From Candidatus Zambryskiibacteriota bacterium (GTDB taxonomy: Bacteria > Patescibacteriota > Minisyncoccia > Phycocordibacterales > DATDWN01): a stretch of 64,000 bases of DNA. The stretch's first letter is position 1, and every line of letters begins with the position of its first letter. Positions 4,639 to 63,724 of this stretch are shown in pieces. The DNA lies in contig JAHFOB010000002.1 in the NCBI GenBank assembly GCA_023267045.1, positions 2,032 through 66,031 on the forward strand, read 5' to 3'. The notes under the pieces were generated by a model that saw nothing but the letters and a program-made list of their open reading frames with translations, was not told the origin of the DNA and searched no databases. A program made the position numbers and the translations under genes.

Positions 4639-4696
4639 ATCTCACTCTTGTCTTTATTACACAATTGAGCTAAATTGGTTTGAGAAGGAGATATAT

Positions 4697-5056
4697 ATGT
4701 CAATTCCACTTCCAATGCCAAAGAGGGTTCCGGAAACTGGCCTCTACTACCACTACAAGCATGACCCAACTGGCACAGTCAACAACTACGCCTATGAAGT
4801 AGTCGGAGTTGGTTTTCACACAGAGGATAACTGTCGTCCTGGGGAACGGCATTTTCTGGTCTATCGTCCCTTGTACGAATCCAGGGAATATCGATTTTCA
4901 AAGTACGGAGGAATCCCTTGTTTTTACAGTAGGCCACTTGCAATGTGGATGGGAGAAGTGGAAAAGGACGGACAAGTTGTTCCGCGCTTCCAGAAAATCA
5001 CTGACCCAAAGGTTATCCGGAAACTGAAAAGAATCCGGAACAAGATGTACCCATGA
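4697..5056 (+). CDS. DUF1653 domain protein
   Basis: GLYYHYKHDPTGTVNNYAYEVVGVGFHTE resembles the DUF1653 core (YrHYKG..Y.V). Strong SD GAGAAGGAGATATATATG. Confidence 0.55.
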   Translation: MSIPLPMPKRVPETGLYYHYKHDPTGTVNNYAYEVVGVGFHTEDNCRPGERHFLVYRPLYESREYRFSKYGGIPCFYSRPLAMWMGEVEKDGQVVPRFQKITDPKVIRKLKRIRNKMYP

Positions 5057-5182: not shown

Positions 5183-5711
5183 CAGAGAGTTCGAAGGGTA
5201 CTAAAGGCTGTACTGGATTAGAGGATGAGAAGGAATATCTTATTCTTGGGTTAAAAGCCAATAATTCAGTGGGAGAGAAATCTTCCTTCAAAAGGTTCGC
5301 TGAAAGGCGGATCCCAAATACGAACAGTCATACGTATCATTGACCGACCTAATAATTGTGCAGGCAGGGGCAATCTCCGAATCCAAAGAGATTCTTGTCG
5401 GCACAAATGTCGTCTGGTGACGCGGGTAAGGATAAATCGCGTTAGGTTCAAAGCCACCAGAAGGCTAGGGAAGTTGATTCCACATCCTTGGATTACCGAA
5501 GGCGAATTCAATCGTCGAGGTAAAAATGGGTATCTGTGGGTGTTTAACAGAACAGCCACGTAGGTGCGACTGCATCAGGAAGATGGGGAAACTCACACAA
5601 TTTAGGTATGAAAGGTCTAACGACTGATCTGCCCAAATTGGGTGTATAACCCACTTCCTGATCTGAGCTAAGATCTGCGCACTCCGCGACGAAAAATCCG
5701 GGGTGTTTTTT
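5183..5711 (+). ncRNA. Candidate structured ncRNA; RNase P RNA is the leading hypothesis, identity not established
   Basis: About 530 nt with no credible ORF, visibly GC-richer than the flanks, between a consensus promoter and an intrinsic terminator.
- Many stable hairpins: TCTGGTG[ACGCG-GGTAAGGATAAAT-CGCGT...]CACCAGA; GAAGGAA...TTCCTTC; AATCTC...GAGATT.
- RNase P-like motifs: AAAG-GCUGU (5207) can pair with ACAGAA-CAGCC (5546), as in P4/J18-2.
- GGUG...CCACC-AGAAGGCUAGGGAAG resembles the P11/J11-12 consensus (CCACC.GGAGCAAGGCCAAAUAGG). Confidence 0.35.
5677..5711 (+). terminator. Intrinsic terminator (plus-strand)
   Basis: CACTCCG-cgacgaaaaatc-CGGGGTG, 7 bp including a G-U pair, followed by TTTTTT. 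Confidence 0.55.
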
Positions 5712-5727
5712 GTATCAGTTTATTTTT

Positions 5728-6627
5728 TTACTTAAAAAATTCCATAAATTTCATCGGGTCGATTGAGACTCCGTTTAGTCTGATACTCAAATGCAGATGT
5801 GGAGCGTCTGTGTAGCCAGTTTGACCAGAAAGTCCGATAATTTGCCCCGGTAAAACAAGTTCACCAACATTTACTTTTATTTTGGAGAGATGAAGGTAGA
5901 ACGTTTGCAATCCCAATCCGTGGTCGACAACGATCGTTTTGCCATAAGAAATACCAGTCCGAGCAATCCGAACAACTCCACGATTCATGGCCATGACAGG
6001 AGTGCCTTCGCTCGCTCTGAAGTCCGTGCCTTTGTGTGGGATAGTATATGCGCCAGTTTCGCGAGAATATCCATATGGGTCCGTCACGAAAATTTGTGAA
6101 AGAGGGAAGTGAAATGATTCTGTCCAAAAAGCTTTTTTGCCAGTGTACAGGTTGTTCAGTGTCGAATTTTCCGTCGCCAACACTGCGATCAAATTATTCT
6201 GACTTGCAGTTGTATTTCCGCCAAGTTTTTCTGGTATGCCGAGTGGTTCCTCGACTTTTTCTCTTTCTAAAACGGTAATAACTTTTTCTAGCGTTTGTCC
6301 GTTTGTTAATTTTACCTTCAGATTATAGTTCCCGGGTTTTTTACGAAGATCAACACCAATAAAAGCTGTGACTTTTTTGCCTGCCCCGTTGGAAGCTTGC
6401 TTTCCTTCGGGGCTGTACAAAAACACTGGCACATGAATGCCATCAAAAGTTATTTCTTTCACTTCAGAAATCTTTGTTAATCCAACCACGGTAATCATCA
6501 CAGGATCACCCCGCTGTATTTTTTCAGGAAAAGTAATCAGTGTAGGAGAAACAGCCCAAGTTATATTTGGGGTTAAAAAAGTTATACAAAATATCAAAAC
6601 AAAACCAAGCTTGAGCACTTTATTCAT
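5728..6627 (-). CDS. M23 family metallopeptidase (LytM-like) with a signal peptide
   Basis: HKGTDF...HxxxD and YLHLSKI...HLHLSI (HxH) motifs; N-terminal hydrophobic signal. Confidence 0.85.
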   Translation of the reverse strand: MNKVLKLGFVLIFCITFLTPNITWAVSPTLITFPEKIQRGDPVMITVVGLTKISEVKEITFDGIHVPVFLYSPEGKQASNGAGKKVTAFIGVDLRKKPGNYNLKVKLTNGQTLEKVITVLEREKVEEPLGIPEKLGGNTTASQNNLIAVLATENSTLNNLYTGKKAFWTESFHFPLSQIFVTDPYGYSRETGAYTIPHKGTDFRASEGTPVMAMNRGVVRIARTGISYGKTIVVDHGLGLQTFYLHLSKIKVNVGELVLPGQIIGLSGQTGYTDAPHLHLSIRLNGVSIDPMKFMEFFK

Positions 6628-15592: not shown

Positions 15593-15611
15593 GAAAGTGG
15601 TAATATATAGG

Positions 15612-15720
15612 ATGAATCCCGTTAGAAATATCGGAGATTCAGTGTTACCACGGTCAGGTTAACTTTAATCATTAACATAAGGAGTTATTATTAAATATAT
15701 GATCTCCTATTTCTAACGGG
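15612..15720 (+). repeat. L-element copy 1: ~107-nt terminal-inverted-repeat element abutting the start codon of 15721
   Basis: ATGA|ATCCCGTTAGAAATATCGGAGAT...ATCTCCTATTTCTAACGGG|ATGAAG; -10-like TAATATATAG immediately upstream. Confidence 0.85.
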
Positions 15721-17253
15721 ATGAAGTTCATAGATAATTTTCTAAACGGCATAACCATGTACAAATTGGTTTTGTACGGACTTTTGGTTTTGGCCGTGTT
15801 TTCTATAGCTCTAAGTTTTGCAGGAATTTTATCGTACAGTCCTCAAAGTTTGTCCAGTTCTTTTATTATTTTGTTAATAGTTTGTTACATAACAAACTAT
15901 CTTTTTTCCAAAGTATTTAGAGTTTCTGTAAATAGTGAATCATATTTCATAACCAGTCTGATATTGTTTTTGATATTGTTTCCTGTAGGTAGTTTATCTC
16001 AACTATGGGTTTCTATTATTGTTGCCACTATAGCAATGGCTTCAAAATATCTTTTGGCAATAAATCAAAAGCATATTTTCAATCCTACCGCTATCGCAAT
16101 TTTTATCATTGGTTTTTTCGGTTATGGTTCGGCCATCTGGTGGATTGGTAGTTCCTATATGATTGTGCCAGTTGTCATTCTCGGTTTTCTAGTTATACGC
16201 AAAGTTCGCCGTTTTGCTTTGTTTTCTTCTTTTCTTCTGGCGGGTGTTGCCAGTATTTCTGTCTTTAGTTTATATCACGGTTTCAACCTAGTTGAAGTTT
16301 TGAAACAAACTTTTCTTTCAGGGCCGATACTTTTCTTCGGCAGTATTATGTTGACAGAACCACTAACGACTCCGCCAAGTGTTGGTCTTCAGGTAGCGTA
16401 TGGCGTTTTAGTCGGAATATTTTTTGGTGCAGAGTTTCAATTTGGCCCATTATATTCTTCACCAGCTCTAGCACTACTTATCGGTAATTTGTTTTCATAT
16501 ATTGTTAGTCCAAGAGCTCATTTAACATTGACTCTGCTTCGCAAAAATAAACTATCCCATGACGTCTATGACTTTGAGTGGAAAATATCTGGTCATAAAA
16601 CAGACAGAAAAATTGGCTTTATGGCGGGTCAGTATATGGAATGGACATTAGCTCACAAACATCCAGATATAAGAGGCAATCGGCGATTTTTTACTCTAGC
16701 TTCCTCTCCGACAGAAGAAAACTTACATCTTGGTATAAAGTTCTACAAAGACTCTAGTAGCTTCAAAAAAGCTCTAAATTCCATGGCTTTGGGTAGTAAA
16801 ATCGTGGCATCGCAAATAGCTGGGTCATTTACACTACCAAAAGACTCAAGCAAGAAGATGGTTTTTATTGCTGGTGGTATAGGTATTACACCGTTCAGAA
16901 GTATTATCAAATATCTGCTCGATAAAAAAGAGGATAGGGAGGCTGTACTTTTCTTTTCAAACAAAACAACAGAAGATATAGTTTACAAAGATATTTTTGA
17001 CGAAGCAGAAAATAAACTTGGGATAAAAACTATTTATGTCATAAACGATATGCAAGGCGGTGTTGAAACTTCAAAAATAAAAGCTGGAATTGTTACAAAA
17101 GAAATGATCGTAGCTGAAGCAACGGATTATAAAGATAGAATTTTCTATATTTCTGGTTCGCACGCGATGGTTGAATCTTTCAAAAACGTTTTACACAAAA
17201 TGGGTGTAAAAAGATCCCAAATCAAAACCGATTTTTTTCCGGGCTTTATGTAG
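15721..17253 (+). CDS. membrane oxidoreductase: polytopic N-terminal domain fused to a ferredoxin-NADP-reductase-type FAD/NAD(P)-binding domain
   Basis: C-terminal RRFFTLASSP (RxYS-type FAD motif), GGIGITPF (NAD-binding) and YISGSHAMV. N-terminal ~280 aa has 8-9 TM helices, with HIFNPTAIA reminiscent of NqrB/RnfD. Confidence 0.6.
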   Translation: MKFIDNFLNGITMYKLVLYGLLVLAVFSIALSFAGILSYSPQSLSSSFIILLIVCYITNYLFSKVFRVSVNSESYFITSLILFLILFPVGSLSQLWVSIIVATIAMASKYLLAINQKHIFNPTAIAIFIIGFFGYGSAIWWIGSSYMIVPVVILGFLVIRKVRRFALFSSFLLAGVASISVFSLYHGFNLVEVLKQTFLSGPILFFGSIMLTEPLTTPPSVGLQVAYGVLVGIFFGAEFQFGPLYSSPALALLIGNLFSYIVSPRAHLTLTLLRKNKLSHDVYDFEWKISGHKTDRKIGFMAGQYMEWTLAHKHPDIRGNRRFFTLASSPTEENLHLGIKFYKDSSSFKKALNSMALGSKIVASQIAGSFTLPKDSSKKMVFIAGGIGITPFRSIIKYLLDKKEDREAVLFFSNKTTEDIVYKDIFDEAENKLGIKTIYVINDMQGGVETSKIKAGIVTKEMIVAEATDYKDRIFYISGSHAMVESFKNVLHKMGVKRSQIKTDFFPGFM

Positions 17254-22597: not shown

Positions 22598-23626
22598 ATG
22601 GATAAAGATTTACTTCAAAAATATTTCTTCGTTGGACTTCTACTTATAGTTTCAGTATTGGTTGGTTTCATTTTTCTTCCTTTTCTGAGTATTTTAGTCT
22701 TATCTTCAATTTTTGGTGTGATTTTAACCCCTCTTCATATAAAAATATCAAAATTTTTTGGTGGCAGAAAAGGTATATCGGCTTTTATTGTAGTTTTGCT
22801 TTTTTGTATAGTTGTTATAATTCCAATGTTTTTCATTTTTATGCAGGTTTTGGGTGAATCAAAAGATCTTTACAGTCAATTGGCAAATCACGATAGTATT
22901 GGATATATACAAAAAATAACTCTAGCCATAGAAAAACCGATACAAAAAATTTATCCGACATTTTCTATAGACCTGAACCAATTCGCCAGTTTTGGGGCAA
23001 ATTGGATTGCTCTGCACTTGAGTTCTATATTATCTAGTGCACTTTCAGTTCTTACCAGCATTGTTTTTATATTTATCTCACTATTCTTTTTCCTTAAAGA
23101 TGGTAGCAAGTTTAAAAAAATGCTAGTTAGCCTTTCGCCACTTCAAGATAAATACGACGAACAAATTTTTGATAAGCTTAAGCAAACAATTACATCCACA
23201 GTACGCGGGGTTTTGCTCGTAGCTATTATTCAAGGAGTTTTGGCTGGTCTAGGGCTTAAAATATTTCACGTTCCACAAGCAATACTGTGGGGGTGTATTG
23301 CTGCCGTAGCATCTGTTATACCTTTCGGCACACTTTCCGTTTATCTACTTTCTATCGCATATATGTATATAACGGGCAATATTCCGTACACTATAGGACT
23401 TGTTTTGTGGACAACTGTTGTTATAGGTCTTGTTGATAATTTTCTTGGTCCATATCTATATTCCAGGGGAGTTGAAATCCATCAACTTGTAATGCTTTTT
23501 GCTATTCTTGGTGGGCTTATAGTTTTTGGCCCGGTAGGATTTATTTTTGGCCCTATTGTTCTGTCTTTGTTTTTTACACTTATAAACATCTATCAGGGTG
23601 TCATTTTGAAAAAAACTTTGTTATAA
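22598..23626 (+). CDS. AI-2E family transporter (UPF0118/PerM-like)
   Basis: About 340 aa, 7-8 TM helices, typical size and topology. The 3' end overlaps the -10 box of the next transcription unit. Confidence 0.55.
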   Translation: MDKDLLQKYFFVGLLLIVSVLVGFIFLPFLSILVLSSIFGVILTPLHIKISKFFGGRKGISAFIVVLLFCIVVIIPMFFIFMQVLGESKDLYSQLANHDSIGYIQKITLAIEKPIQKIYPTFSIDLNQFASFGANWIALHLSSILSSALSVLTSIVFIFISLFFFLKDGSKFKKMLVSLSPLQDKYDEQIFDKLKQTITSTVRGVLLVAIIQGVLAGLGLKIFHVPQAILWGCIAAVASVIPFGTLSVYLLSIAYMYITGNIPYTIGLVLWTTVVIGLVDNFLGPYLYSRGVEIHQLVMLFAILGGLIVFGPVGFIFGPIVLSLFFTLINIYQGVILKKTLL

Positions 23627-23633
23627 TGAGACC

Positions 23634-23740
23634 ATGAATCCCGTTAGAGATTTCAGTTTATTGAAAATTCTTCGGGTAAAATAACATTATTAAATAATTT
23701 GTATATTCAGTAGTTAAAAGCTACTGGTATCTCTAACGGG
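23634..23740 (+). repeat. L-element copy 2 (divergent core) abutting the start codon of 23741
   Basis: ATGA|ATCCCGTTAGAGAT...ATCTCTAACGGG|ATGAAA; TATAAT box at 23622-23627. Confidence 0.8.
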
Positions 23741-24244
23741 ATGAAAACTCCAAAAATATTTGAATCAATTTATCAATTCTTGTTTTCTAATGTAAAGTTT
23801 TCTGTTTTCTGGTTAGTTGTTAGAATTTATTTAGGATGGGAGTGGTTACATGCGGGGTATGAAAAAGTTATAAATCCTATGTGGGTTGGTAAAACTGCGG
23901 GGGGAGCATTAACAGGTTTTATAAATGGCGCTTTAGCAAAAACCGCAGGAGCTCATCCTGATGTGTCTATGTGGTACGCTTGGTTTTTGAAGCACGCAGT
24001 TTTAACATACGTCGTTACTTGGTCAAATTTGGTAGCGTATGGTGAACTTCTTGTTGGTATTGGACTTATTTTGGGTGCTCTAACTTTCCTATCTGCATTT
24101 TTCGGATTCTTTATGAATTTGAATTATCTTTTAGCTGGTACTGTTAGTACGAACCCAGTCCTCTTAATTTTAGCCATTCTTATAATGCTTGCTCACAAAA
24201 CAGCAGGGTATATTGGACTTGATCGCTGGCTTGTTAAGAGTTAG
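23741..24244 (+). CDS. DoxX family membrane protein
   Basis: Four TM helices, RIYLGWEWLHAGYEK..., DoxX-like size and pattern. Confidence 0.55.
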   Translation: MKTPKIFESIYQFLFSNVKFSVFWLVVRIYLGWEWLHAGYEKVINPMWVGKTAGGALTGFINGALAKTAGAHPDVSMWYAWFLKHAVLTYVVTWSNLVAYGELLVGIGLILGALTFLSAFFGFFMNLNYLLAGTVSTNPVLLILAILIMLAHKTAGYIGLDRWLVKS

Positions 24245-30755: not shown

Positions 30756-30814
30756 GTTTCTGAGCATTTTCTATAAATAGCAACGATAATATACTTTATG
30801 TTACAATAGCCCTC

Positions 30815-30921
30815 ATGGATCCCGTTAGAAATATCGGAGATCAATGTTACGATTATCAGGTTAATTTTAATTTTATAATAGGTCGTCATAGCAGAATGTA
30901 TGATCTCCTATTTCTAACGGG
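30815..30921 (+). repeat. L-element copy 3 abutting the start codon of dedA (30922)
   Basis: ATGG|ATCCCGTTAGAAATATCGGAGAT...ATCTCCTATTTCTAACGGG|ATGGAT. The duplicated hexamer ATGGAT matches this gene's own start; TACAAT box lies upstream. Confidence 0.85.
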
Positions 30922-31539
30922 ATGGATTATTTGATAAATAGCATAACTATACTTGGATATTTTGGCTATGGGCTTTTATTTATAATCATATTTTTTGAGT
31001 CTTTTCCACTAACATTTTTCTTGCCAGGAGACAGTTTGCTTTTTACATCTGGGTTTCTGGCTTCACAAGGGCACTTCAATCTTGCTCTACTTATCGCCAC
31101 ACTTTTTCTAGCAAGTATCGCCGGCTATCTTTTCAGCTATGCAATGGGGGAGAAACTTCGACAAATTATTTTGAAAAGTAACGACAAGTATTGGTTCAAA
31201 AAAAAGCACTTGGACTACACAGAAAAATTTTATGCAAAGTACGGCACAAAAACAGTAATTATCGGTCGCTTTGTTCCCATAGTCCGTTCTTTTAGTCCGA
31301 CATTGGCTGGAGCTGTAGATATGAACTTCAAAAAATTTCTAAAACTGACTATGCTTGGCGGATTTCTCTGGACGGTAGGAATAACTTCTGCCGGTTTTTA
31401 TTTGGGTAAAGCTATTCCTAGCGCTCATTTATATTTAACACCGATAATTCTCGGTATTATTTTTGTGTCACTTTTGCCAGCAATCATAGAATATATTCGT
31501 GATCAGGTTGCCAAAGGTAAAATAAATCCAAAAGTATAA
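30922..31539 (+). CDS. DedA family membrane protein
   Basis: LPGDSLLF...GRFVPIVRSFSPTLAG, DedA/SNARE-associated pattern. Confidence 0.8.
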   Translation: MDYLINSITILGYFGYGLLFIIIFFESFPLTFFLPGDSLLFTSGFLASQGHFNLALLIATLFLASIAGYLFSYAMGEKLRQIILKSNDKYWFKKKHLDYTEKFYAKYGTKTVIIGRFVPIVRSFSPTLAGAVDMNFKKFLKLTMLGGFLWTVGITSAGFYLGKAIPSAHLYLTPIILGIIFVSLLPAIIEYIRDQVAKGKINPKV

Positions 31540-34158: not shown

Positions 34159-34239
34159 GTCGGCACCTCTAGGCTAAAATTACTCTTATTTATAAAGTTG
34201 TCAATTTACAAATCGTCACAAAAATAATATAATTACGTC

Positions 34240-34346
34240 ATGAGTCCCGTTAGAAATAGCGGAGATCAATATTACCAGAGTCAGATAAGTTTAATAATTA
34301 AATAAGGAGTAATAGTTTTATACTAGATCTCCTATTTCTAAACGGG
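34240..34346 (+). repeat. L-element copy 4 abutting the start codon of the FKBP gene (34347)
   Basis: ATGA|GTCCCGTTAGAAATAGCGGAGAT...AGATCTCCTATTTCTAAACGGG|ATGAAA; TTTACA-17-TATAAT promoter directly upstream. Confidence 0.85.
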
Positions 34347-34802
34347 ATGAAAACATTAGATACAAATGAGTGGATAGCTGTCATAGTTTCTGTTTTTGTT
34401 GTTGGTTTCTTTTTTATATTTGGCCAAAGTCTTATTTCCTTATTTAATAACAGTAATTCAAAAAGTATGGTCACTACTCCACAAGTTATTTCAACAGATA
34501 CGGTTATAGGTGCAGGTCAAACGGCAACAGATGGCGATCGTGTAGTGGTTCATTACACCGGACATTTTGTTGATGGCAAAGTTTTTGATAGTTCTGTCAC
34601 TCGTGGCGAGCCATTTCAATTTGTCTTGGGCAGAGGACAAGTTATAAAAGGTTGGGATGAGGGTATAGTCGGTATGCGAGTTGGTGGCAAAAGAACTCTC
34701 TCAATCCCACCAGAACTTGGCTATGGGGCAAATGACTACGGACCGATTCCTGGCAGATCGACGCTTATCTTTGATGTTGAGTTATTGAAAGTGGAAAAAT
34801 AG
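34347..34802 (+). CDS. FKBP-type peptidyl-prolyl cis-trans isomerase, membrane-anchored
   Basis: N-terminal TM; VVVHYTGHFVDGKVFDSS...FQFVLGRGQVIKGWDEG..GM.VGG.R.L.IPPELGYG is the FKBP domain. Confidence 0.9.
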   Translation: MKTLDTNEWIAVIVSVFVVGFFFIFGQSLISLFNNSNSKSMVTTPQVISTDTVIGAGQTATDGDRVVVHYTGHFVDGKVFDSSVTRGEPFQFVLGRGQVIKGWDEGIVGMRVGGKRTLSIPPELGYGANDYGPIPGRSTLIFDVELLKVEK

Positions 34803-43661: not shown

Positions 43662-44645
43662 ATGAATAATTTGTCTCGCTCTCTTCACATCGGTGTTATA
43701 CGAGGTGGACCATCTTCAGAATATGAAGTTTCGCTACAAACCGGTGGAAATGTTTTGAAAACTCTTTCAGAAACTCACAGTCCTGTAGATATTTTTATTT
43801 CTCGCGATGGTAAATGGCATATAAACGGTGTTGAGAGATCTCCGGAGAGAATTTTGAAAAATATCGACGTGGTTTTCAATGCTTTGCACGGAGAGTATGG
43901 TGAGGACGGTGGAGTTCAGGAAATTTTAGTTCATCACGGCGTGCCATTTACAGGTTCAGAAAGATATCCGTCGGCTATTGCAATGAACAAGTGGATGACA
44001 AAAGAACGTGCCAAAGCTATCGGTATAAAAACACCATTGGCAATGCTCGTTAGAAGGGAAGATTCTATAAATGAAAAAGCCAGAGAAATTTGGAGTGCAA
44101 TGCCACATCCTTTTATAGTTAAACCGACTTGTGGAGGATCATCCATCGGAGTATATATTGCAAATACTTTCAAAGAACTAGTTTCTTCACTTGAAAAAGT
44201 TTTAGAAATTCATGGTTCAGCTGTTGTTGAGGAGTATATTACTGGCAAAGAAGCGACATGCGGAGTAATAGATAATTTCCGTGAGCAGAAACTCTACGCT
44301 CTGCCGGTAGTAGAAATAATTCCACCAAAGAAAAGTAAATTTTTTGATAATGAATCAAAATACAATGGCCAAAGTAGGGAAGTTTGTCCTGGCAATTTTA
44401 GTGCAGAGGAAAAAACAGAAATGGAGAAAATCTCCAAAGAAATTCACGAAGTTCTCGGCCTTCGACACTATTCACGATCTGATTTCATCGTCTCACCTCG
44501 TCGCGGGATTTATTTTCTAGAAGTTAACACTCTTCCCGGTTTGACAAAAGAATCTCTTTTACCAAAATCTCTCCAAGCTGTAGGGGTATCTTTTATTGAT
44601 TTTATACATCACGTTTTAGGTTTGGCATTGAATAGAAACAATTAA
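43662..44645 (+). CDS. ddl: D-alanine--D-alanine ligase
   Basis: HIGVIRGGPSSEYEVSL..., HGEYGEDGGVQ, ATP-grasp motifs. The ATG at 43662 sits 6 nt after a TATAAT box (TCGACA-17-TATAAT), suggesting a leaderless mRNA. Alternative starts are GTG 43635 and ATG 43647. Confidence 0.8.
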   Translation: MNNLSRSLHIGVIRGGPSSEYEVSLQTGGNVLKTLSETHSPVDIFISRDGKWHINGVERSPERILKNIDVVFNALHGEYGEDGGVQEILVHHGVPFTGSERYPSAIAMNKWMTKERAKAIGIKTPLAMLVRREDSINEKAREIWSAMPHPFIVKPTCGGSSIGVYIANTFKELVSSLEKVLEIHGSAVVEEYITGKEATCGVIDNFREQKLYALPVVEIIPPKKSKFFDNESKYNGQSREVCPGNFSAEEKTEMEKISKEIHEVLGLRHYSRSDFIVSPRRGIYFLEVNTLPGLTKESLLPKSLQAVGVSFIDFIHHVLGLALNRNN

Positions 44646-45276: not shown

Positions 45277-46176
45277 ATGAATATACAAATATTGGCTCAG
45301 AAATTTTACGACTATTCATTGTATATGCGTGGTCGCAGACCAGCAACAATTAGACGATATAGACAGGCAATCAACTTGTACTCCAGACTGGCAGGAGTTT
45401 CAGAAATAGAACAAGTGACGGAAGACAATGTAAGACAATTCTTTTTTAATGGAAGAACTAAACGCAACTGGAAACCAAATTCGTTTATTTGTTTCTATCA
45501 TTCTCTGTTAGTATTTTTCAAATGGTGTCTGAATGAAAAGTATCTGACAAAAAATCCAATTGATGATCTTGAAATACCAAAGGTAGAAAAACGGTTGCCG
45601 GCCTGCCTTACCAAGCAGGATGCTTTCAAACTCATTGAAGTTGTTTATAACTATCCGTACGATTATAAATATTTGCGATACAGAAACCATGCTATATTTT
45701 CAACTTTTATTTTCTCTGGTTTAAGAAAGAAAGAGTTGTTGAAATTAAAATATACTGATATTGACCTGGAGAATCTAAGTATATTTGTTAATCAGGGCAA
45801 GGGTGGTAAAGATCGAATAATACCGATATGTAGCACTTTGGCCCAGAGCTTAAAACGTTACTTGGAGGAACGCAAACGACTCAACAAAACATGTCCAGAA
45901 TTCTTTGCATCTCTGAACCGAAATTGTGGATTTACTGATATGGGGCTCCGGGGGTTAGTCTTTAAGATAAGAAAGGCGTCTGGTATAAAATTCACAATTC
46001 ATAAACTCCGACACACCTTTGCAACATTAATGTTGGAAGGTGGTTGCGATATTTTTAGTTTGTCTAAAATGATGGGTCACAGTGACATCAAGACCACAAC
46101 AATTTATCTCTCAGCCAGTGCTAATCATTTAAGGTCGCAGATGATTAAACACCCGTTGAATGATTTGGTAACCTAG
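45277..46176 (+). CDS. tyrosine-type site-specific recombinase/integrase (int1)
   Basis: C-terminal catalytic region HKLRHTFATLMLEGGCDIFSLSKMMGHSDIKTTTIYL (R...HxxR...Y). Confidence 0.85.
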   Translation: MNIQILAQKFYDYSLYMRGRRPATIRRYRQAINLYSRLAGVSEIEQVTEDNVRQFFFNGRTKRNWKPNSFICFYHSLLVFFKWCLNEKYLTKNPIDDLEIPKVEKRLPACLTKQDAFKLIEVVYNYPYDYKYLRYRNHAIFSTFIFSGLRKKELLKLKYTDIDLENLSIFVNQGKGGKDRIIPICSTLAQSLKRYLEERKRLNKTCPEFFASLNRNCGFTDMGLRGLVFKIRKASGIKFTIHKLRHTFATLMLEGGCDIFSLSKMMGHSDIKTTTIYLSASANHLRSQMIKHPLNDLVT

Positions 46177-46192: not shown

Positions 46193-46265
46193 TGGACCCT
46201 GCCGGATTCGGACCGGCGACCTCCGCATTGCAAATGCGGCGCTCTACCAACTAAGCTAAGGGCCC
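46193..46265 (-). tRNA. tRNA-Ala (anticodon UGC), intact, carried inside the island
   Basis: Reverse complement reads GGGCCCTTAGCTTAGTTGGTAGAGCGCCGCATTTGCAATGCGGAGGTCGCCGGTCCGAATCCGGCAGGGTCCA. G3:U70 acceptor pair; anticodon stem CCGCA/TGCGG with loop TTTGCAA. Confidence 0.85.
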
Positions 46266-56740: not shown

Positions 56741-57748
56741 TTGGTAAATGAGACATACATGCGAACTAAAAAGAAGGATGTAGCTGTTATCCAAAAAGAT
56801 CCGCTGAATTCGCTAAATCCAGATCGTCTGGATGAGCTTTTTGATCAGTTTATGACGGAAAAGAAATATGTGACACTACTTCGCCCTGCTACCTTGATTG
56901 GGTATAGAGCATCGTATGACCTTTTTAGAAAACTCTCGTATGTCACAATTGATTCACTCACCACAAAATCGCTGACTAATTTTTTCAAGGAGATGCAAAC
57001 CAGAACTAGAATTGTTGGTAAGGGGGTTGAGAAAATTGGTGTTAAGGATTCAACCATAGCAACATATGCTATGAAGCTTAATGTATTTTTTGAGTGGTTA
57101 GTTCAAGAAAAACATATCATTGAAAATCCAATCAAAAAATTGCCAAAATACAGACCAGTCTATGATGACAAAAGAGCCTTACGCAAAGGAGATATCGAAT
57201 ATATCAGAACAGCAATTGAAAACCACTCCACTACTTTGCTACAAAAGAAGAGAGATCAAACGATGCTCGCTGTACTTCTGTTTTGTGGGATAAGAAGAGG
57301 AGAACTACTTGGCTTGAAAGTGACTGATATCGACCTGGAAAAAAGGCAACTGATAATTAGAGGCGAAACATCGAAATCAAAGCGTACGAAAATTTTACCG
57401 ATTACCAATAAAATATTAGCAATGGCTTTACAAGATTATTTGAATGAGAGAAAAAATTACAAAACTCCGCAATTATTTGTTTCGTTAAATACTGACAAAG
57501 GACTAAGCTACGAAGGATTCAAACATTGGATTGACAGGTTGGAACTATTGTCTGGTGTAAAATTTCATTCGCATCGATTTCGTCATACCTTTGCTACAAA
57601 TCTTGAAGCTAACGATGTTGGCATTATAAAGATTTCAAAACTTATGGGTCATAAAGATACAAGAATGACTCAAGTGTATCTTCGCTCGATGGGATCAGAG
57701 GACTTAGGACCAGAGATGAGTACCCTGACATTTGACAACTTGATATAA
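56741..57748 (+). CDS. tyrosine-type site-specific recombinase/integrase (int2), reading toward the right junction
   Basis: HSHRFRHTFATNLEANDVGIIKISKLMGHKDTRMTQVYL catalytic motif. Confidence 0.85.
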   Translation: MVNETYMRTKKKDVAVIQKDPLNSLNPDRLDELFDQFMTEKKYVTLLRPATLIGYRASYDLFRKLSYVTIDSLTTKSLTNFFKEMQTRTRIVGKGVEKIGVKDSTIATYAMKLNVFFEWLVQEKHIIENPIKKLPKYRPVYDDKRALRKGDIEYIRTAIENHSTTLLQKKRDQTMLAVLLFCGIRRGELLGLKVTDIDLEKRQLIIRGETSKSKRTKILPITNKILAMALQDYLNERKNYKTPQLFVSLNTDKGLSYEGFKHWIDRLELLSGVKFHSHRFRHTFATNLEANDVGIIKISKLMGHKDTRMTQVYLRSMGSEDLGPEMSTLTFDNLI

Positions 57749-58010: not shown

Positions 58011-58373
58011 GCGTCAGTGGAAGACAGAGTCATGTTTTTATACCAATAAAAACGGACGAGTCAGGGTCGTGGAAATTTTGTTTTGACGAAAATAAAATTA
58101 TTCCTGACCACAAAATGTATTAGGAAAATAGTGGCTGACCCCATTTTCCCTGACCCCATTTTCCCCATCTTCTAAATAAATCATTGCTATGGTATTGTTT
58201 TGTTACAACTAAATAAGTTAAAGTAGCCTAAACCAAGTAATTGGCATGGTGAAAAGCCCAGTAACGAATAAAAAACCCATCATGCGGGCTTGTCGTTACT
58301 GGCCATATCGGGAAACCGGTATGGGGAGCTTCGGCTCCCACCCTGTGGTGGGCTTTTTGTATAAATAAAAAAT

Positions 58374-58661
58374 ATGGAAAACGAATCTATTGAAAAAGAT
58401 GTATCTATTGTATCCAAGAAAGATAAGTGGTTTGCTGGTTATATAGTAACAGGATTAATTTTTAATGCGTCACAAATTTTTGACAGAACAACATATGACG
58501 GGTTCTTTATTATTGTAGTATCAATAATGTGTGGGTATTTTTATCACAGATTAAAGAATAAAATAAAATTAAAAAATGAGGGAAATAGAATTATTGTTAC
58601 CTTCTTGATTCTTGAATTAATTGCTGGTTTTTTAATAGGAGCTATAACACGTTTTTTCTAA
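58374..58661 (+). CDS. small membrane protein (95 aa)
   Basis: Three TM segments. Confidence 0.4.
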   Translation: MENESIEKDVSIVSKKDKWFAGYIVTGLIFNASQIFDRTTYDGFFIIVVSIMCGYFYHRLKNKIKLKNEGNRIIVTFLILELIAGFLIGAITRFF

Positions 58662-58662
58662 A

Positions 58663-59451
58663 ATGAAAAAACTCTCAAAAACTTATGTATTCATCGGGCT
58701 GATAGTTTCATTGGTAATTTTACTTGGAATATTTTATAAAAAAAATGATTGCAATGTATATGGCATCAATATTCATGGAGATATTGTTACCTACAACGGA
58801 AACGATTCTTATAATGATCAGAATAAGTTAATTTACGATCAAACTTCTGCGGATGACGTTTTAAATCTCATAAAAGATGCTAATAGTAATAATGATATAA
58901 AGGCTATAACCATAGAAATTGACTCAAGTGGTGGTTCTCCTGTGGCAGGAGAAGAAATAATGAGGGCTTTAAAGGACTCTGGTAAGCCAACAGTAGCCTT
59001 TATCCGTAACAGGGGGCTATCCTCTGCATATCTCATTGCTACTGGGGTAGAAACTATATTCGCCTCTCAATTCTCGGATGTAGGAAGTATAGGTATTACA
59101 ATGTCTTATTTACAAAATACAGAAAAAAATAAAAAAGATGGACTGACATATATAGACTTGAGTTCAGGAAAATATAAAGATTCTGGCAATCCAAACAGAT
59201 CTCTGACTGAAGAAGAAAAACAAATTTTCATGCGTGATGTAAAAATATCACATGATTATTTTGTAGGCCTTGTATCTGAGAATCGTAACTTAGATATTGA
59301 AATGGTAAAAAAACTAGCAGACGGTTCAAGTATTAATGGAATGGGAGCATTAAAAGAAGGTCTTATAGATAAGATCGGTATACTACCCGATGTGGAGAAT
59401 TTTCTCGCAGAAAAAATTGGAACAACAGCAGAGATATGTTGGCAAAATTAA
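58663..59451 (+). CDS. signal peptide peptidase SppA-like S49 family protease (short form)
   Basis: N-terminal TM; ITIEIDSSGGSPVAGEEIMRAL...SSAYLIATG...SDVGSIGI are ClpP/crotonase-fold S49 motifs. Confidence 0.75.
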   Translation: MKKLSKTYVFIGLIVSLVILLGIFYKKNDCNVYGINIHGDIVTYNGNDSYNDQNKLIYDQTSADDVLNLIKDANSNNDIKAITIEIDSSGGSPVAGEEIMRALKDSGKPTVAFIRNRGLSSAYLIATGVETIFASQFSDVGSIGITMSYLQNTEKNKKDGLTYIDLSSGKYKDSGNPNRSLTEEEKQIFMRDVKISHDYFVGLVSENRNLDIEMVKKLADGSSINGMGALKEGLIDKIGILPDVENFLAEKIGTTAEICWQN

Positions 59452-62739: not shown

Positions 62740-63534
62740 TTAATAATACTTATCAATATTTTTCAAATGACCTTCGTATGTTGCTGAACAATGAATATTT
62801 CCTTTTTTGTCGTGAAGGTAGAAAAGACAGTTTGTTTTTTGAGGATTGTAAGCGGCGTCGATAGCTGCTAGACCTGGATTGGCGATAGGAGTCGGTGGAA
62901 GTCCAACATGCAGATATGTATTGTAGAGTGAGTTTATGCTTTTGTCTTTTGGATAAACTTTTGACCACCAACCATCTTCTTCTGAACCTTTGGCGTATTG
63001 CAGCGTGGCGTCTATTTGTAGTTTCATACCGTTGAAAAGGCGATTCCAAATAATTCCGGAAATTAATTTCATATCATTTTTTCCGCCGGCTTCACGCTGG
63101 ATGATGGAGGCGATAGTCAGAGCTGTTTCTGGGTTGATTATTTTTGCCGTTTTTGGTTTTTTAATTGCGGATGTTTGTGTGCTGAACTGGTGAAGCATTA
63201 TACTGGTTACTCCAAGCGGGTTTTCATCTTTCAGTAAAATATAAGTTTTTGGAAAATATTTTCCTTCCAAGTCGTCTGTGTTCAGTGCTAAATGTGCATT
63301 TATAAACTGGCTTTTTTCTGAATCACCCCAACCTAGTTTACTTCCAACAAGATCAGCGATCTCTTCTTTACGCAGTCCCTCTCTGACTTGAACTATACGA
63401 GCGTCTGGGTTGGCCAAACTCTGGTAGAAAGAAAGGTCAGCCAACAGAGAAAAATCTAACCTATAGTGATACATCATTCCCAAAAGAGTTCCGAAAGATA
63501 AAACAAAGAGTGTAGCAATGTATCTTAACTTCAT
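62740..63534 (-). CDS. mltG: endolytic murein transglycosylase MltG/YceG family
   Basis: N-terminal TM; YceG-like domain pattern (NTYLHVGLPPTPIANPGLAAIDAA). Confidence 0.8.
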   Translation of the reverse strand: MKLRYIATLFVLSFGTLLGMMYHYRLDFSLLADLSFYQSLANPDARIVQVREGLRKEEIADLVGSKLGWGDSEKSQFINAHLALNTDDLEGKYFPKTYILLKDENPLGVTSIMLHQFSTQTSAIKKPKTAKIINPETALTIASIIQREAGGKNDMKLISGIIWNRLFNGMKLQIDATLQYAKGSEEDGWWSKVYPKDKSINSLYNTYLHVGLPPTPIANPGLAAIDAAYNPQKTNCLFYLHDKKGNIHCSATYEGHLKNIDKYY

Positions 63535-63641
63535 CCCGTTAGAAGTACCAGTAATTTGAATATTAAAGGTATAAAAATTAACTTAATTTTTAAATTATTC
63601 TCAAAAGAAGATTTTCGACTGAAACTTCTAACGGGATTCAT
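63535..63641 (-). repeat. L-element copy 5 (minus-strand orientation, divergent core) abutting the start codon of mltG
   Basis: The minus strand reads ATGA|ATCCCGTTAGAAGT...ACTTCTAACGGG|ATGAAG; a -10-like TATGATATAG lies upstream. Confidence 0.8.
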
Positions 63642-63724
63642 TTCTAAACTATATCATATTTGAAAATATTTCTTTTGTTTTTTCCACATGGACTTATAGA
63701 TTGATTCTGATAAAATAGAGTCTA

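Follow-up and report, generated by a model that had tools for sequence, protein, structure and literature searches.

How can an insertion of about one hundred nucleotides land exactly on the start codon of a gene and still leave this gene with a start codon? The question is raised by a stretch of 64,000 nt (hereafter the window, i.e. the whole of the DNA analysed here) from a Candidatus Zambryskiibacteriota bacterium (assembly GCA_023267045.1, contig JAHFOB010000002.1, positions 2,032 to 66,031), and in particular by a 103-nt element located on its minus strand at 63534–63636, directly ahead of the coding sequence of MltG. A first interpretation, made from the letters of the window without any database search (the sequence-only reading), had proposed that this element and four others like it are copies of, or derive from, a transposable element of the miniature inverted-repeat type (MITE) located at start codons. 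This proposal is supported by empty sites in related genomes, by flanking repeats that track the gene struck and by the spread of the element within genomes. The explanation that we favour, with a probability of roughly three in four, is that of a non-autonomous, MITE-like DNA transposon forming a hairpin of 90–118 bp, which repairs by itself the start codons that it strikes, would be found there through the survival of such copies, and would be followed by a relay of translation through a short upstream open reading frame (uORF).

The five copies of the window and their empty sites

The window contains five copies (c1 to c5) of one element of 103–105 nt, which starts with TCCCGTTAGA, ends with TCTAACGGGA and has a gap of about 83 nt between its two arms; a search tolerating two errors per arm did not find a sixth copy in the 64 kb. 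The terminal A of all five copies is the A of the ATG opening a real open reading frame (ORF), and the encoded proteins are an RnfD-like/NAD-binding protein, DoxX, DedA, a membrane-anchored FKBP and MltG. All five copies fold into a long hairpin (−28 to −37 kcal/mol, z = −4.0 to −5.7). A second ATG adjoins each of them on the left, in the sense of the gene, and is preceded at 5–7 nt by a −10-like box, which carries a TGn extension in four cases out of five. The left and right pentamers reported by the sequence-only reading were all found as described, namely ATGAA/ATGAA for c1, c2 and c5, ATGGA/ATGGA for c3 and ATGAG/ATGAA for c4. Among the window copies alone, a single one (c3) shows a concordant variant of the repeat, and the pattern is statistically firm only in the wider sample described below.

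In c5, the element reads TCCCGTTAGAAGT...ACTTCTAACGGGA on the minus strand, and its terminal A, at 63534, opens the start codon of MltG. The left ATGAA (63637–63641) is the original start, made of the A at 63641 and of the left duplication TGAA at 63640–63637. The right TGAA (63530–63533) forms with the A of the element the working start, ATGAAG, of the MltG ORF (62740–63534). A putative TGn-extended −10-like box, TGATATAGT (63648–63656, minus strand), as read from the sequence, lies 6 nt before the left ATG; an MltG orthologue devoid of the element retains it, a shared tatgatatagt box preceding both ATGs. As had been noticed, the uORF opened by the left ATG of c5 reads through the element over 36 codons and ends at a TGA overlapping the main ATG.

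The four other copies are carried by the plus strand. The 105 nt of c1 (15617–15721) follow an ATGAA at 15612–15616 and a −10-like TAATAT at 15601–15606, and the main ATG at 15721 opens the gene of a 510-aa RnfD-like/NAD-binding membrane protein. The other three copies are 103 nt long. The left ATGAA of c2 (23639–23741) begins at 23634, behind a TATAAT (23622–23627) that overlaps the stop codon of the upstream gene, and the main ATG at 23741 is that of the DoxX/DoxD protein; the spacers before insertion were 19 nt for c1 and 7 nt for c2. Copy c3 (30820–30922), with a left ATGGA from 30815 and TGTTACAAT at 30799–30807, precedes a DedA/VTT protein with a Met-Asp start (main ATG at 30922), and its uORF traverses the whole element to stop at a TGA at +10. 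Copy c4 (34245–34347), with a left ATGAG from 34240 and a TATAAT at 34228–34233, precedes a membrane-anchored FKBP isomerase (main ATG at 34347); it shows one mismatch between its repeats and a 1-nt insertion in its right arm, which reads TCTAAACGGGA. Outside their arms, c1, c3 and c4 are 72–78% identical and c2 and c5 74%, the median for all pairs of copies, inside and outside the window, being 56%.

The ddl gene, cited in the sequence-only reading as an ordinary leaderless gene, does have a TATAAT 6 nt before its ATG at 43662. More largely, a Shine-Dalgarno-like tetramer lies 5–16 nt before an early ATG in only 10 of the 61 window ORFs of at least 120 codons, and a TANNNT lies at 5–8 nt in 19 of them; leaderless or non-Shine-Dalgarno initiation seems to be common in the source genome.

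The window was compared with 19 metagenome contigs syntenic with it at 22–37 kb, whose XseA shows 44–69% identity to the query and whose neighbouring genes reach up to 93%; a second assembly of the same genome (L145; loci are numbered with this prefix) is 100% identical to the window. Orthologues of all five genes include element-free sites, in which the −10 box directly precedes the ATG, i.e. the arrangement for which the sequence-only reading had proposed to look. The dedA site is gctacaatagccctcATGGAA in L130 and gctagaatagcccttATGGAA in L136, the window having gttacaatagccctcATGGA–element–ATGGAT; it is also empty in L132 to L135, which have gttacaatg-N5-ATG or GTG. Likewise, the mltG site is tatgatatagtctttatATGAAG in L143 and gttataattccctcATGAAA in L144, for tatgatatagtttagaaATGAA–element–ATGAAG in the window. 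The FKBP site is empty in L134, L136 and others, the site of the RnfD-like gene in L136 and that of DoxX in L124. For all of these genes, the left ATG of the window copy matches the position of the start codon of the orthologue behind the same −10 box, and the net gain of the filled site is the element plus 4 bp. The N-terminus of the protein is kept, the window DedA starting with Met-Asp-Tyr as does that of L123.

The polymorphism is reciprocal. Indeed, L128 carries copies at the starts of a DEAD-helicase gene and of xseA (4664–4768 and 6187–6290), both of which are empty in the window, and lacks dedA between these two genes. Furthermore, L132 harbours, at the very FKBP start codon that is occupied in the window, an element of a different sub-lineage.

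The duplicated tetranucleotide and the anatomy of the element

Copies outside the window were collected using the exact pattern TCCCGTTAGA-N68-98-TCTAACGGGA, with one genome per species, which gave at least 120 loci; the counts given hereafter (127 elements, 105 at starts, 78 with a left ATG) are those found among the matches listed. As this sample was picked by exact 10-nt arms and a length window, divergent lineages, such as those of L128 and L132, are under-sampled. Most matches belong to Patescibacteria (Saccharibacteria, Paceibacteria, Kaiser-, Nomura- and Yanofskybacteria), and the others to metagenome-assembled genomes (MAGs) labelled Omnitrophota, Planctomycetota (Sedimentisphaerales), Elusimicrobia, WOR-3, Stahlbacteria or Desulfobacterales. 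The element is not local to the source genome and occurs in many lineages. Transport by phages was considered and rejected, a single match being found among 2.9 million viral contigs.

In 104–105 of the 127 elements (82%), the last base provides the A of the ATG of an ORF of at least 50 codons. The genes that follow are of all kinds, such as topA, atpA, glyS, pheT, secG, ssb, clpP, dnaN, gyrA, mreB and genes of ribosomal proteins and glycosyltransferases. A regulon of membrane proteins, to which all five window genes would belong, was rejected because downstream genes of every kind are found and only 30 of the 105 downstream proteins have an N-terminal hydrophobic segment; the five membrane proteins of the window are a coincidence.

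The left ATGNN is identical to the ATGNN of the gene itself in 71 of the 78 copies that have a left ATG. These concordant cases include AA (44), AG (11), GA (9) and CG (2) as the last two bases, and CA, CC, TA, GG and AT once each. The flank is not constant and follows the second codon of each gene, whereas a constant flank, irrespective of this codon, would be expected of a sequence intrinsic to the element. The target-site duplication claimed by the sequence-only reading is real, but its length is 4 bp (TGNN) and not 5. Indeed, copies located elsewhere than at start codons show other 4-bp repeats abutting the T...A ends, i.e. TTTA (L059, L103, L010), TAAA (L132), CCCG (L083, L077) and CTCG (L090), and in several of them the base preceding the left repeat is not A. 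Moreover, the closing T-A pair has become C-G in L116 and L077, and the start codon of L116 is thereby GTG. The final A of ...CGGGA is the element's own, because non-start repeats abut the T...A termini and because of these C-G pairs; therefore, what is duplicated is TGNN, and the new ATG combines the A of the element with a duplicated TG. In a few copies, the repeat is 5 bp long or slips by one base.

The last duplicated base, i.e. position 5 of the gene, is a purine in 96% of the copies versus 54% of background ORFs, the start positions of which are approximate (p = 8e-16). Targets approximate YNNR, the two outer bases being complementary. The possibility that the repeat is kept in order to lengthen the stem was rejected, since positions 4 and 5 of the two copies covary as identities; pairing cannot explain the repeat because it needs the reverse complement (TTCA).

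The usual length of the element is 90–118 nt, with minimal forms of 39–67 nt. It does not contain any transposase gene, and its coding content is limited to short uORFs of variable sequence. Its terminal inverted repeats (stem P1), previously given as 9 bp, comprise 13 bp, of which 10 are invariant (TCCCGTTAGA/TCTAACGGGA) and 3 covary. Pairs 11–13 are mostly AU (45–52) or GC (24–31), plus UA and CG; 95.9% of the cells are paired, and the covariation score was reached by none of 500 shuffles. In the commonest class (112–118 nt), P1 is followed on the 3' strand by a 4-nt bulge (ACCU, AUCU or UCCU) and then by a G+C-rich stem P2 (CGCGRYC/GRYCGCG), a local 3' hairpin taking the place of bulge and P2 in the other size classes. 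This asymmetric interior is always oriented in the same way relative to the gene (46:0). Its sense strand is purine-rich, with more A than T in 80 of 105 copies, and its sequence is variable outside the stems. The determinants of movement appear to sit in the arms because the minimal forms, which comprise barely more than P1, still carry a duplication. The sub-lineage of L128, a relative of the window, has arms TCCCGTAAGA...TCAAACGGGA, with two A.A mismatches in the stem. Tandem arrays sharing one common TGAA were found in L009, L061, L087 and L113; their abutting ends form a 10-4-10 palindrome, TCTAACGGGA-TGAA-TCCCGTTAGA.

When the arms (13 nt) are removed, the most similar pairs of copies are found in the same MAG at different genes, with within-MAG identities of 80–95% for a median of 56%. 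For example, the adk and rpmC copies of L067 are 95% identical, and each of them shares 88% identity with L080, which has ATGCG and not ATGAA as its repeat; L007 and L054 are 80% identical and have the repeats ATGAG and ATGAA, respectively. The repeat is not carried by the element, because near-identical copies bear different repeats. L067, from a Patescibacteria MAG, harbours at least four copies in 8 kb (325, 2264–2344, 5340–5451 and 6262), around adk and ribosomal-protein genes, all with TGAA repeats and two at 95% identity, which suggests a recent burst. The secG start carries an element in four genomes (L044, L049, L076, L105), and these copies represent at least three sub-lineages of the element; two of them, from Yanofskybacteria, are 94% alike and have unrelated left flanks (CATAG and ATTCA).

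The insertion of the element into leaderless genes, as assumed by the sequence-only reading, holds in part: the window copies do lie behind leaderless-type promoters, but 40 of the 105 copies have, on the same strand, an upstream ORF whose end is no more than 5 nt away from the left ATG, with about 20 ATGA overlaps. At these overlaps, the duplicated TGA(A/G) saves both the upstream stop and the downstream start. A −10-like box or hexamer at 5–8 nt is present in only 13 of the 40 copies that have free upstream space. Targeting of the transcription bubble at leaderless promoters was rejected, many copies being located at operon-internal ATGA overlaps or devoid of any −10 box. The common denominator is the start codon itself, the left copy inheriting the initiation signal of the gene.

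Probable survivorship, a proposed uORF relay and competing explanations

The sequences show why a gene struck at its start codon survives: since the element has T as its first base and A as its last, an insertion that duplicates the TGNR of a start codon repairs itself. The left copy retains the original ATG together with its −10 box, its Shine-Dalgarno site or its overlapping ATGA stop, and the right copy rebuilds, with the terminal A of the element, the gene's own ATG. According to the explanation that we favour, in very compact genomes nearly all other insertions would be destructive or soon deleted, and start-codon copies would come to dominate. The transcript would carry a leader of about 110 nt, in which P1 would pair the A and the U of the main AUG. 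Ribosomes would begin at the inherited left AUG, translate a short uORF (M-N/D/S-P-V-R...) and melt the stem, then meet a stop within the element, or else the UAA (−7) or UGA (+1) of the conserved 3' arm, and restart at the main AUG. The single orientation would mean that only one keeps the gene expressed, a reason that is a supposition; all that is said here of the transcription and translation of the element is inferred from sequence.

Several observations support the relay. No Shine-Dalgarno sequence lies at a normal distance from the main AUG. Of 78 copies, 28 have an interior devoid of stops in the uORF frame, versus 9 and 7 in the two other frames, i.e. about three times as often, and the cluster-weighted shares are 38% versus 15% and 10%. 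The open uORFs end at the UAA (−7) in 18 cases and at the UGA (+1) in 10 cases, both stops being provided by the conserved 3' arm. Arrangements placing the uORF in frame with the gene are depleted (13 of 78) and always closed by a stop.

Other points weigh against the explanation as a whole. Of the 78 uORFs, 50 stop well within the element. A reversed interior would be open in 17 of 78 cases, versus 28 of 78 (p = 0.08), and the openness of the uORF alone is insufficient to explain the lock on orientation; the strict 46:0 ratio is not what is usually seen in a cut-and-paste element whose ends are symmetric. A share of more than 80% of copies at start codons is far above that expected from neutral survival, unless selection or deletion is very strong. 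In nine copies (L006, L033, L039 at 4812, L063, L095, L096, L101 at 5101, L114 and L132 at 8661), an (A)CTTG, or an ATTG in L063, stands beside TCCCG in place of the left ATGNN. These copies show no 4-bp repeat with the right flank and have no upstream AUG such as the relay requires; most of them have a −10-like box 7–9 nt upstream, and TTG-TCC-CGT-TAG would make a three-codon uORF. The conservation of the arms is overstated by the selection on exact 10-nt arms, and the phylum names are those of the MAG records, the bins of which are possibly mixed or mis-binned. Lastly, the cognate transposase that the sequence-only reading had proposed to search for was not encountered: neither the 25 window ORFs nor about 1.1 Mb of related loci contain an autonomous partner or a DDE transposase, and these related loci include neither arm pairs 0.5–3 kb apart enclosing a transposase nor a recurrent cluster of mobile-looking ORFs. 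The element has all the structural characters of a MITE except a known autonomous partner.

An unlikely alternative is that the element is actively targeted, i.e. that it integrates at translation starts in one orientation by recognizing an asymmetric feature (the sequence ATGR, an RNA or DNA guide, or the region where initiation takes place), near-random insertion followed by survival being insufficient. Besides the 82% of copies at start codons and the 46:0 orientation, such targeting would fit the repeated strikes of different sub-lineages on the same start (secG in four genomes, FKBP in the window and in L132), the double insertions in tandem into one TGAA and the location of all five window copies at starts while unoccupied starts exist, such as that of ddl (ATGAAT). 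The copies outside start codons argue in the opposite direction. Their duplications are TTTA, TAAA, CCCG or CTCG, never TGNN, and the preference of the enzyme therefore looks like YNNR rather than ATG, without any requirement for TG. They are also commoner in MAGs of lineages with larger genomes, as survivorship predicts: they make up 5 of 15 loci from MAGs outside the Candidate Phyla Radiation (CPR) versus 3 of 105 others (p = 7e-4). Moreover, near-identical copies with different repeats, such as L003 and L021, show no compensating change in the element. Survivorship is favoured over active targeting because the non-start copies lack TG and are commoner in non-CPR MAGs. A bolder form of targeting, to which we give little credence, would be a class of transposons that integrates at start codons in one orientation by reading the initiation region and not a palindromic target, and that has become a domesticated relay leader gating several per cent of the genes of Patescibacteria and of other streamlined lineages.

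A single-strand element of the HUH/Y1 type (IS200/IS605-PATE or REPIN/RAYT) would insert 3' of a fixed target, the repeat being carried by the element. The hairpin of about 100 nt, the strict orientation and the lack of internal transposase would suit this type, and the GTTAG/CTAAC head (CCCGTAGTG in the variant of L132) recalls the head of REP sequences, GTAG. It is nevertheless very improbable, since the repeat changes with codon 2 of the host gene, also between copies of one genome that are 88–95% identical, the N-terminus of the gene is intact by comparison with orthologues (Met-Asp-Tyr for DedA, as in L123), the hairpin is terminal and not subterminal, and filled sites exceed empty ones by the element and 4 bp. 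No Y1/HUH transposase was seen in the window ORFs scanned.

Even less probable is a vertically inherited cis-regulatory RNA leader (a riboswitch, a thermosensor or a protein-binding hairpin) that would possess an upstream ATG by design. Its location 5' of genes, its stable and covarying stem, its fixed orientation, its purine-rich sense strand and a uORF open more often than chance predicts would all fit such a leader. However, the set of genes is incoherent, the interior varies except in its stems, the sites of close relatives are empty and their promoters intact, each repeat matches the gene that it flanks, and near-identical copies precede unrelated genes of one genome. Rfam 15 gave no match for the element in the window at the gathering score, and none at E ≤ 10 for a 117-nt copy. 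A secondary regulatory role, acquired by exaptation, may exist.

Sites of a site-specific recombinase (integron attC-like or Xer/dif-like, the repeat being the crossover core) are scarcely credible despite the conserved ends, the variable centre, a length like the 57–141 nt of such sites, the 10-4-10 palindrome of the tandem arrays and the two tyrosine recombinase genes of the window, since the order of the core is opposite to that of attC (5' GTTAGA and 3' TCTAAC), the genes nearby are housekeeping ones and not cassettes, empty sites lack recombinase-binding arms, the recombinase genes of the window adjoin no copy and a 4-bp spacer is shorter than the known cores of tyrosine recombinases.

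Relationships with known elements and neighbouring features

Various bacterial MITEs, such as Correia/NEMIS of Neisseria, ERIC, RUP and BOX, are co-transcribed with neighbouring genes (PMC10969869). The start-codon element resembles them by its short, non-coding sequence, its terminal inverted repeats and target duplications, its many dispersed copies, its hairpins in mRNA and its presence or absence between relatives. However, these MITEs are limited to a genus or family, occupy varied intergenic sites in either orientation and do not rebuild any coding signal, whereas the element described here lies on start codons, completes the ATG with its own last base, is locked in one orientation and has 10 invariant terminal bp across MAGs of several phyla. 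It is set apart from described bacterial MITEs by the rebuilding of the ATG, the near-exclusive location at starts, the fixed orientation and the conservation of its termini across distant lineages. A full-text literature search (MITEs, start codons, leaderless genes, Patescibacteria) did not retrieve any description of it, and a search with the arm sequence retrieved primers only. Neither a review from 2024 nor a survey of MITEs in 183,232 prokaryotic genomes, also from 2024, mentions start codons or these phyla.

The Rickettsia palindromic elements (RPEs) are inserted in frame inside ORFs and translated within the protein (PMC10969869). Like them, the start-codon element is palindromic, mobile and able to survive in compact genomes since the struck gene tolerates the insertion; unlike them, it remains outside the protein, the in-frame arrangements being depleted and closed by a stop. 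One copy in an Omnitrophota MAG (L010, 4498–4604) makes with its TTTA repeat 111 nt, i.e. 37 codons, and leaves the frame unbroken within the apparent first codons of a long minus-strand ORF; it may be an RPE-like in-frame insertion.

The closest parallel in logic is eukaryotic. The introners of algae and fungi are miniature DNA transposons whose target duplication and terminal bases recreate a splice site; they can insert anywhere in genes and are spliced out. In the bacterial element, the start codon replaces the splice site, and the insertion is retained in the mRNA, at the start of the gene. As for the enzyme, the IS5, IS701 and IS1380 groups and the piggyBac superfamily generate 4-bp, occasionally 5-bp, duplications with complementary outer bases; piggyBac targets TTAA and has ends CCCTAGAAAG, and the ends of the IS1380 group begin with CC. 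The termini of the element, a T followed by CCCGTTAGAAA, resemble those of piggyBac and IS1380, and the duplication length fits. This is a lead only: the target is not TTAA/YTAR, and no such transposase is found near any copy.

The arrangement also recalls termination-reinitiation coupling, the uORF ending at a UGA that overlaps the main AUG or at a UAA 4 nt before it, and the left ATG often overlapping the stop of the upstream gene. It differs from it in that a transposon makes the arrangement and a single arm provides the stops in two frames, reinitiation itself being here only presumed.

If confirmed, the element would be a bacterial transposon designed for harmless insertion at start codons, a counterpart of introners. 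This would explain how a selfish element can reach a high density in some of the most compact genomes (five copies in 64 kb, four in 8 kb). Leaderless or coupled genes would be converted into genes with a structured leader and a uORF, a natural system for the study of leaderless initiation, 70S reinitiation and hairpin unwinding; such work might be feasible in cultivated Saccharibacteria, if they carry the element. Gene callers may also pick the wrong ATG at element sites. The nearest MltG homologues bear names that point to a Paceibacteria/Minisyncoccia-like organism as the source of the window. Among MltG homologues, many (P0006, P0011 and others) are annotated as 8–23 residues longer than the 264-aa form; those of L141 and L142 are longer through the calling of an upstream in-frame ATG, and neither locus has an element. 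The annotation of start sites in this clade looks unreliable.

Two other regions of the window recall integrated elements. A XerC/D-like tyrosine recombinase gene (45277–46176) adjoins a tRNA gene (46193–46265, minus strand), beyond which lie DUF4238 and accessory-looking genes on the minus strand; the region looks like an integration hotspot or the boundary of an island. A phage-type tyrosine integrase gene (56741–57748) is closely followed by a LOOT RNA (Rfam RF03000, 80.7 bits; 58225–58339, plus strand), then, at 58374–59451, by a small ORF and the gene of an S49/NfeD-type peptidase, and the whole may be an integrated element.

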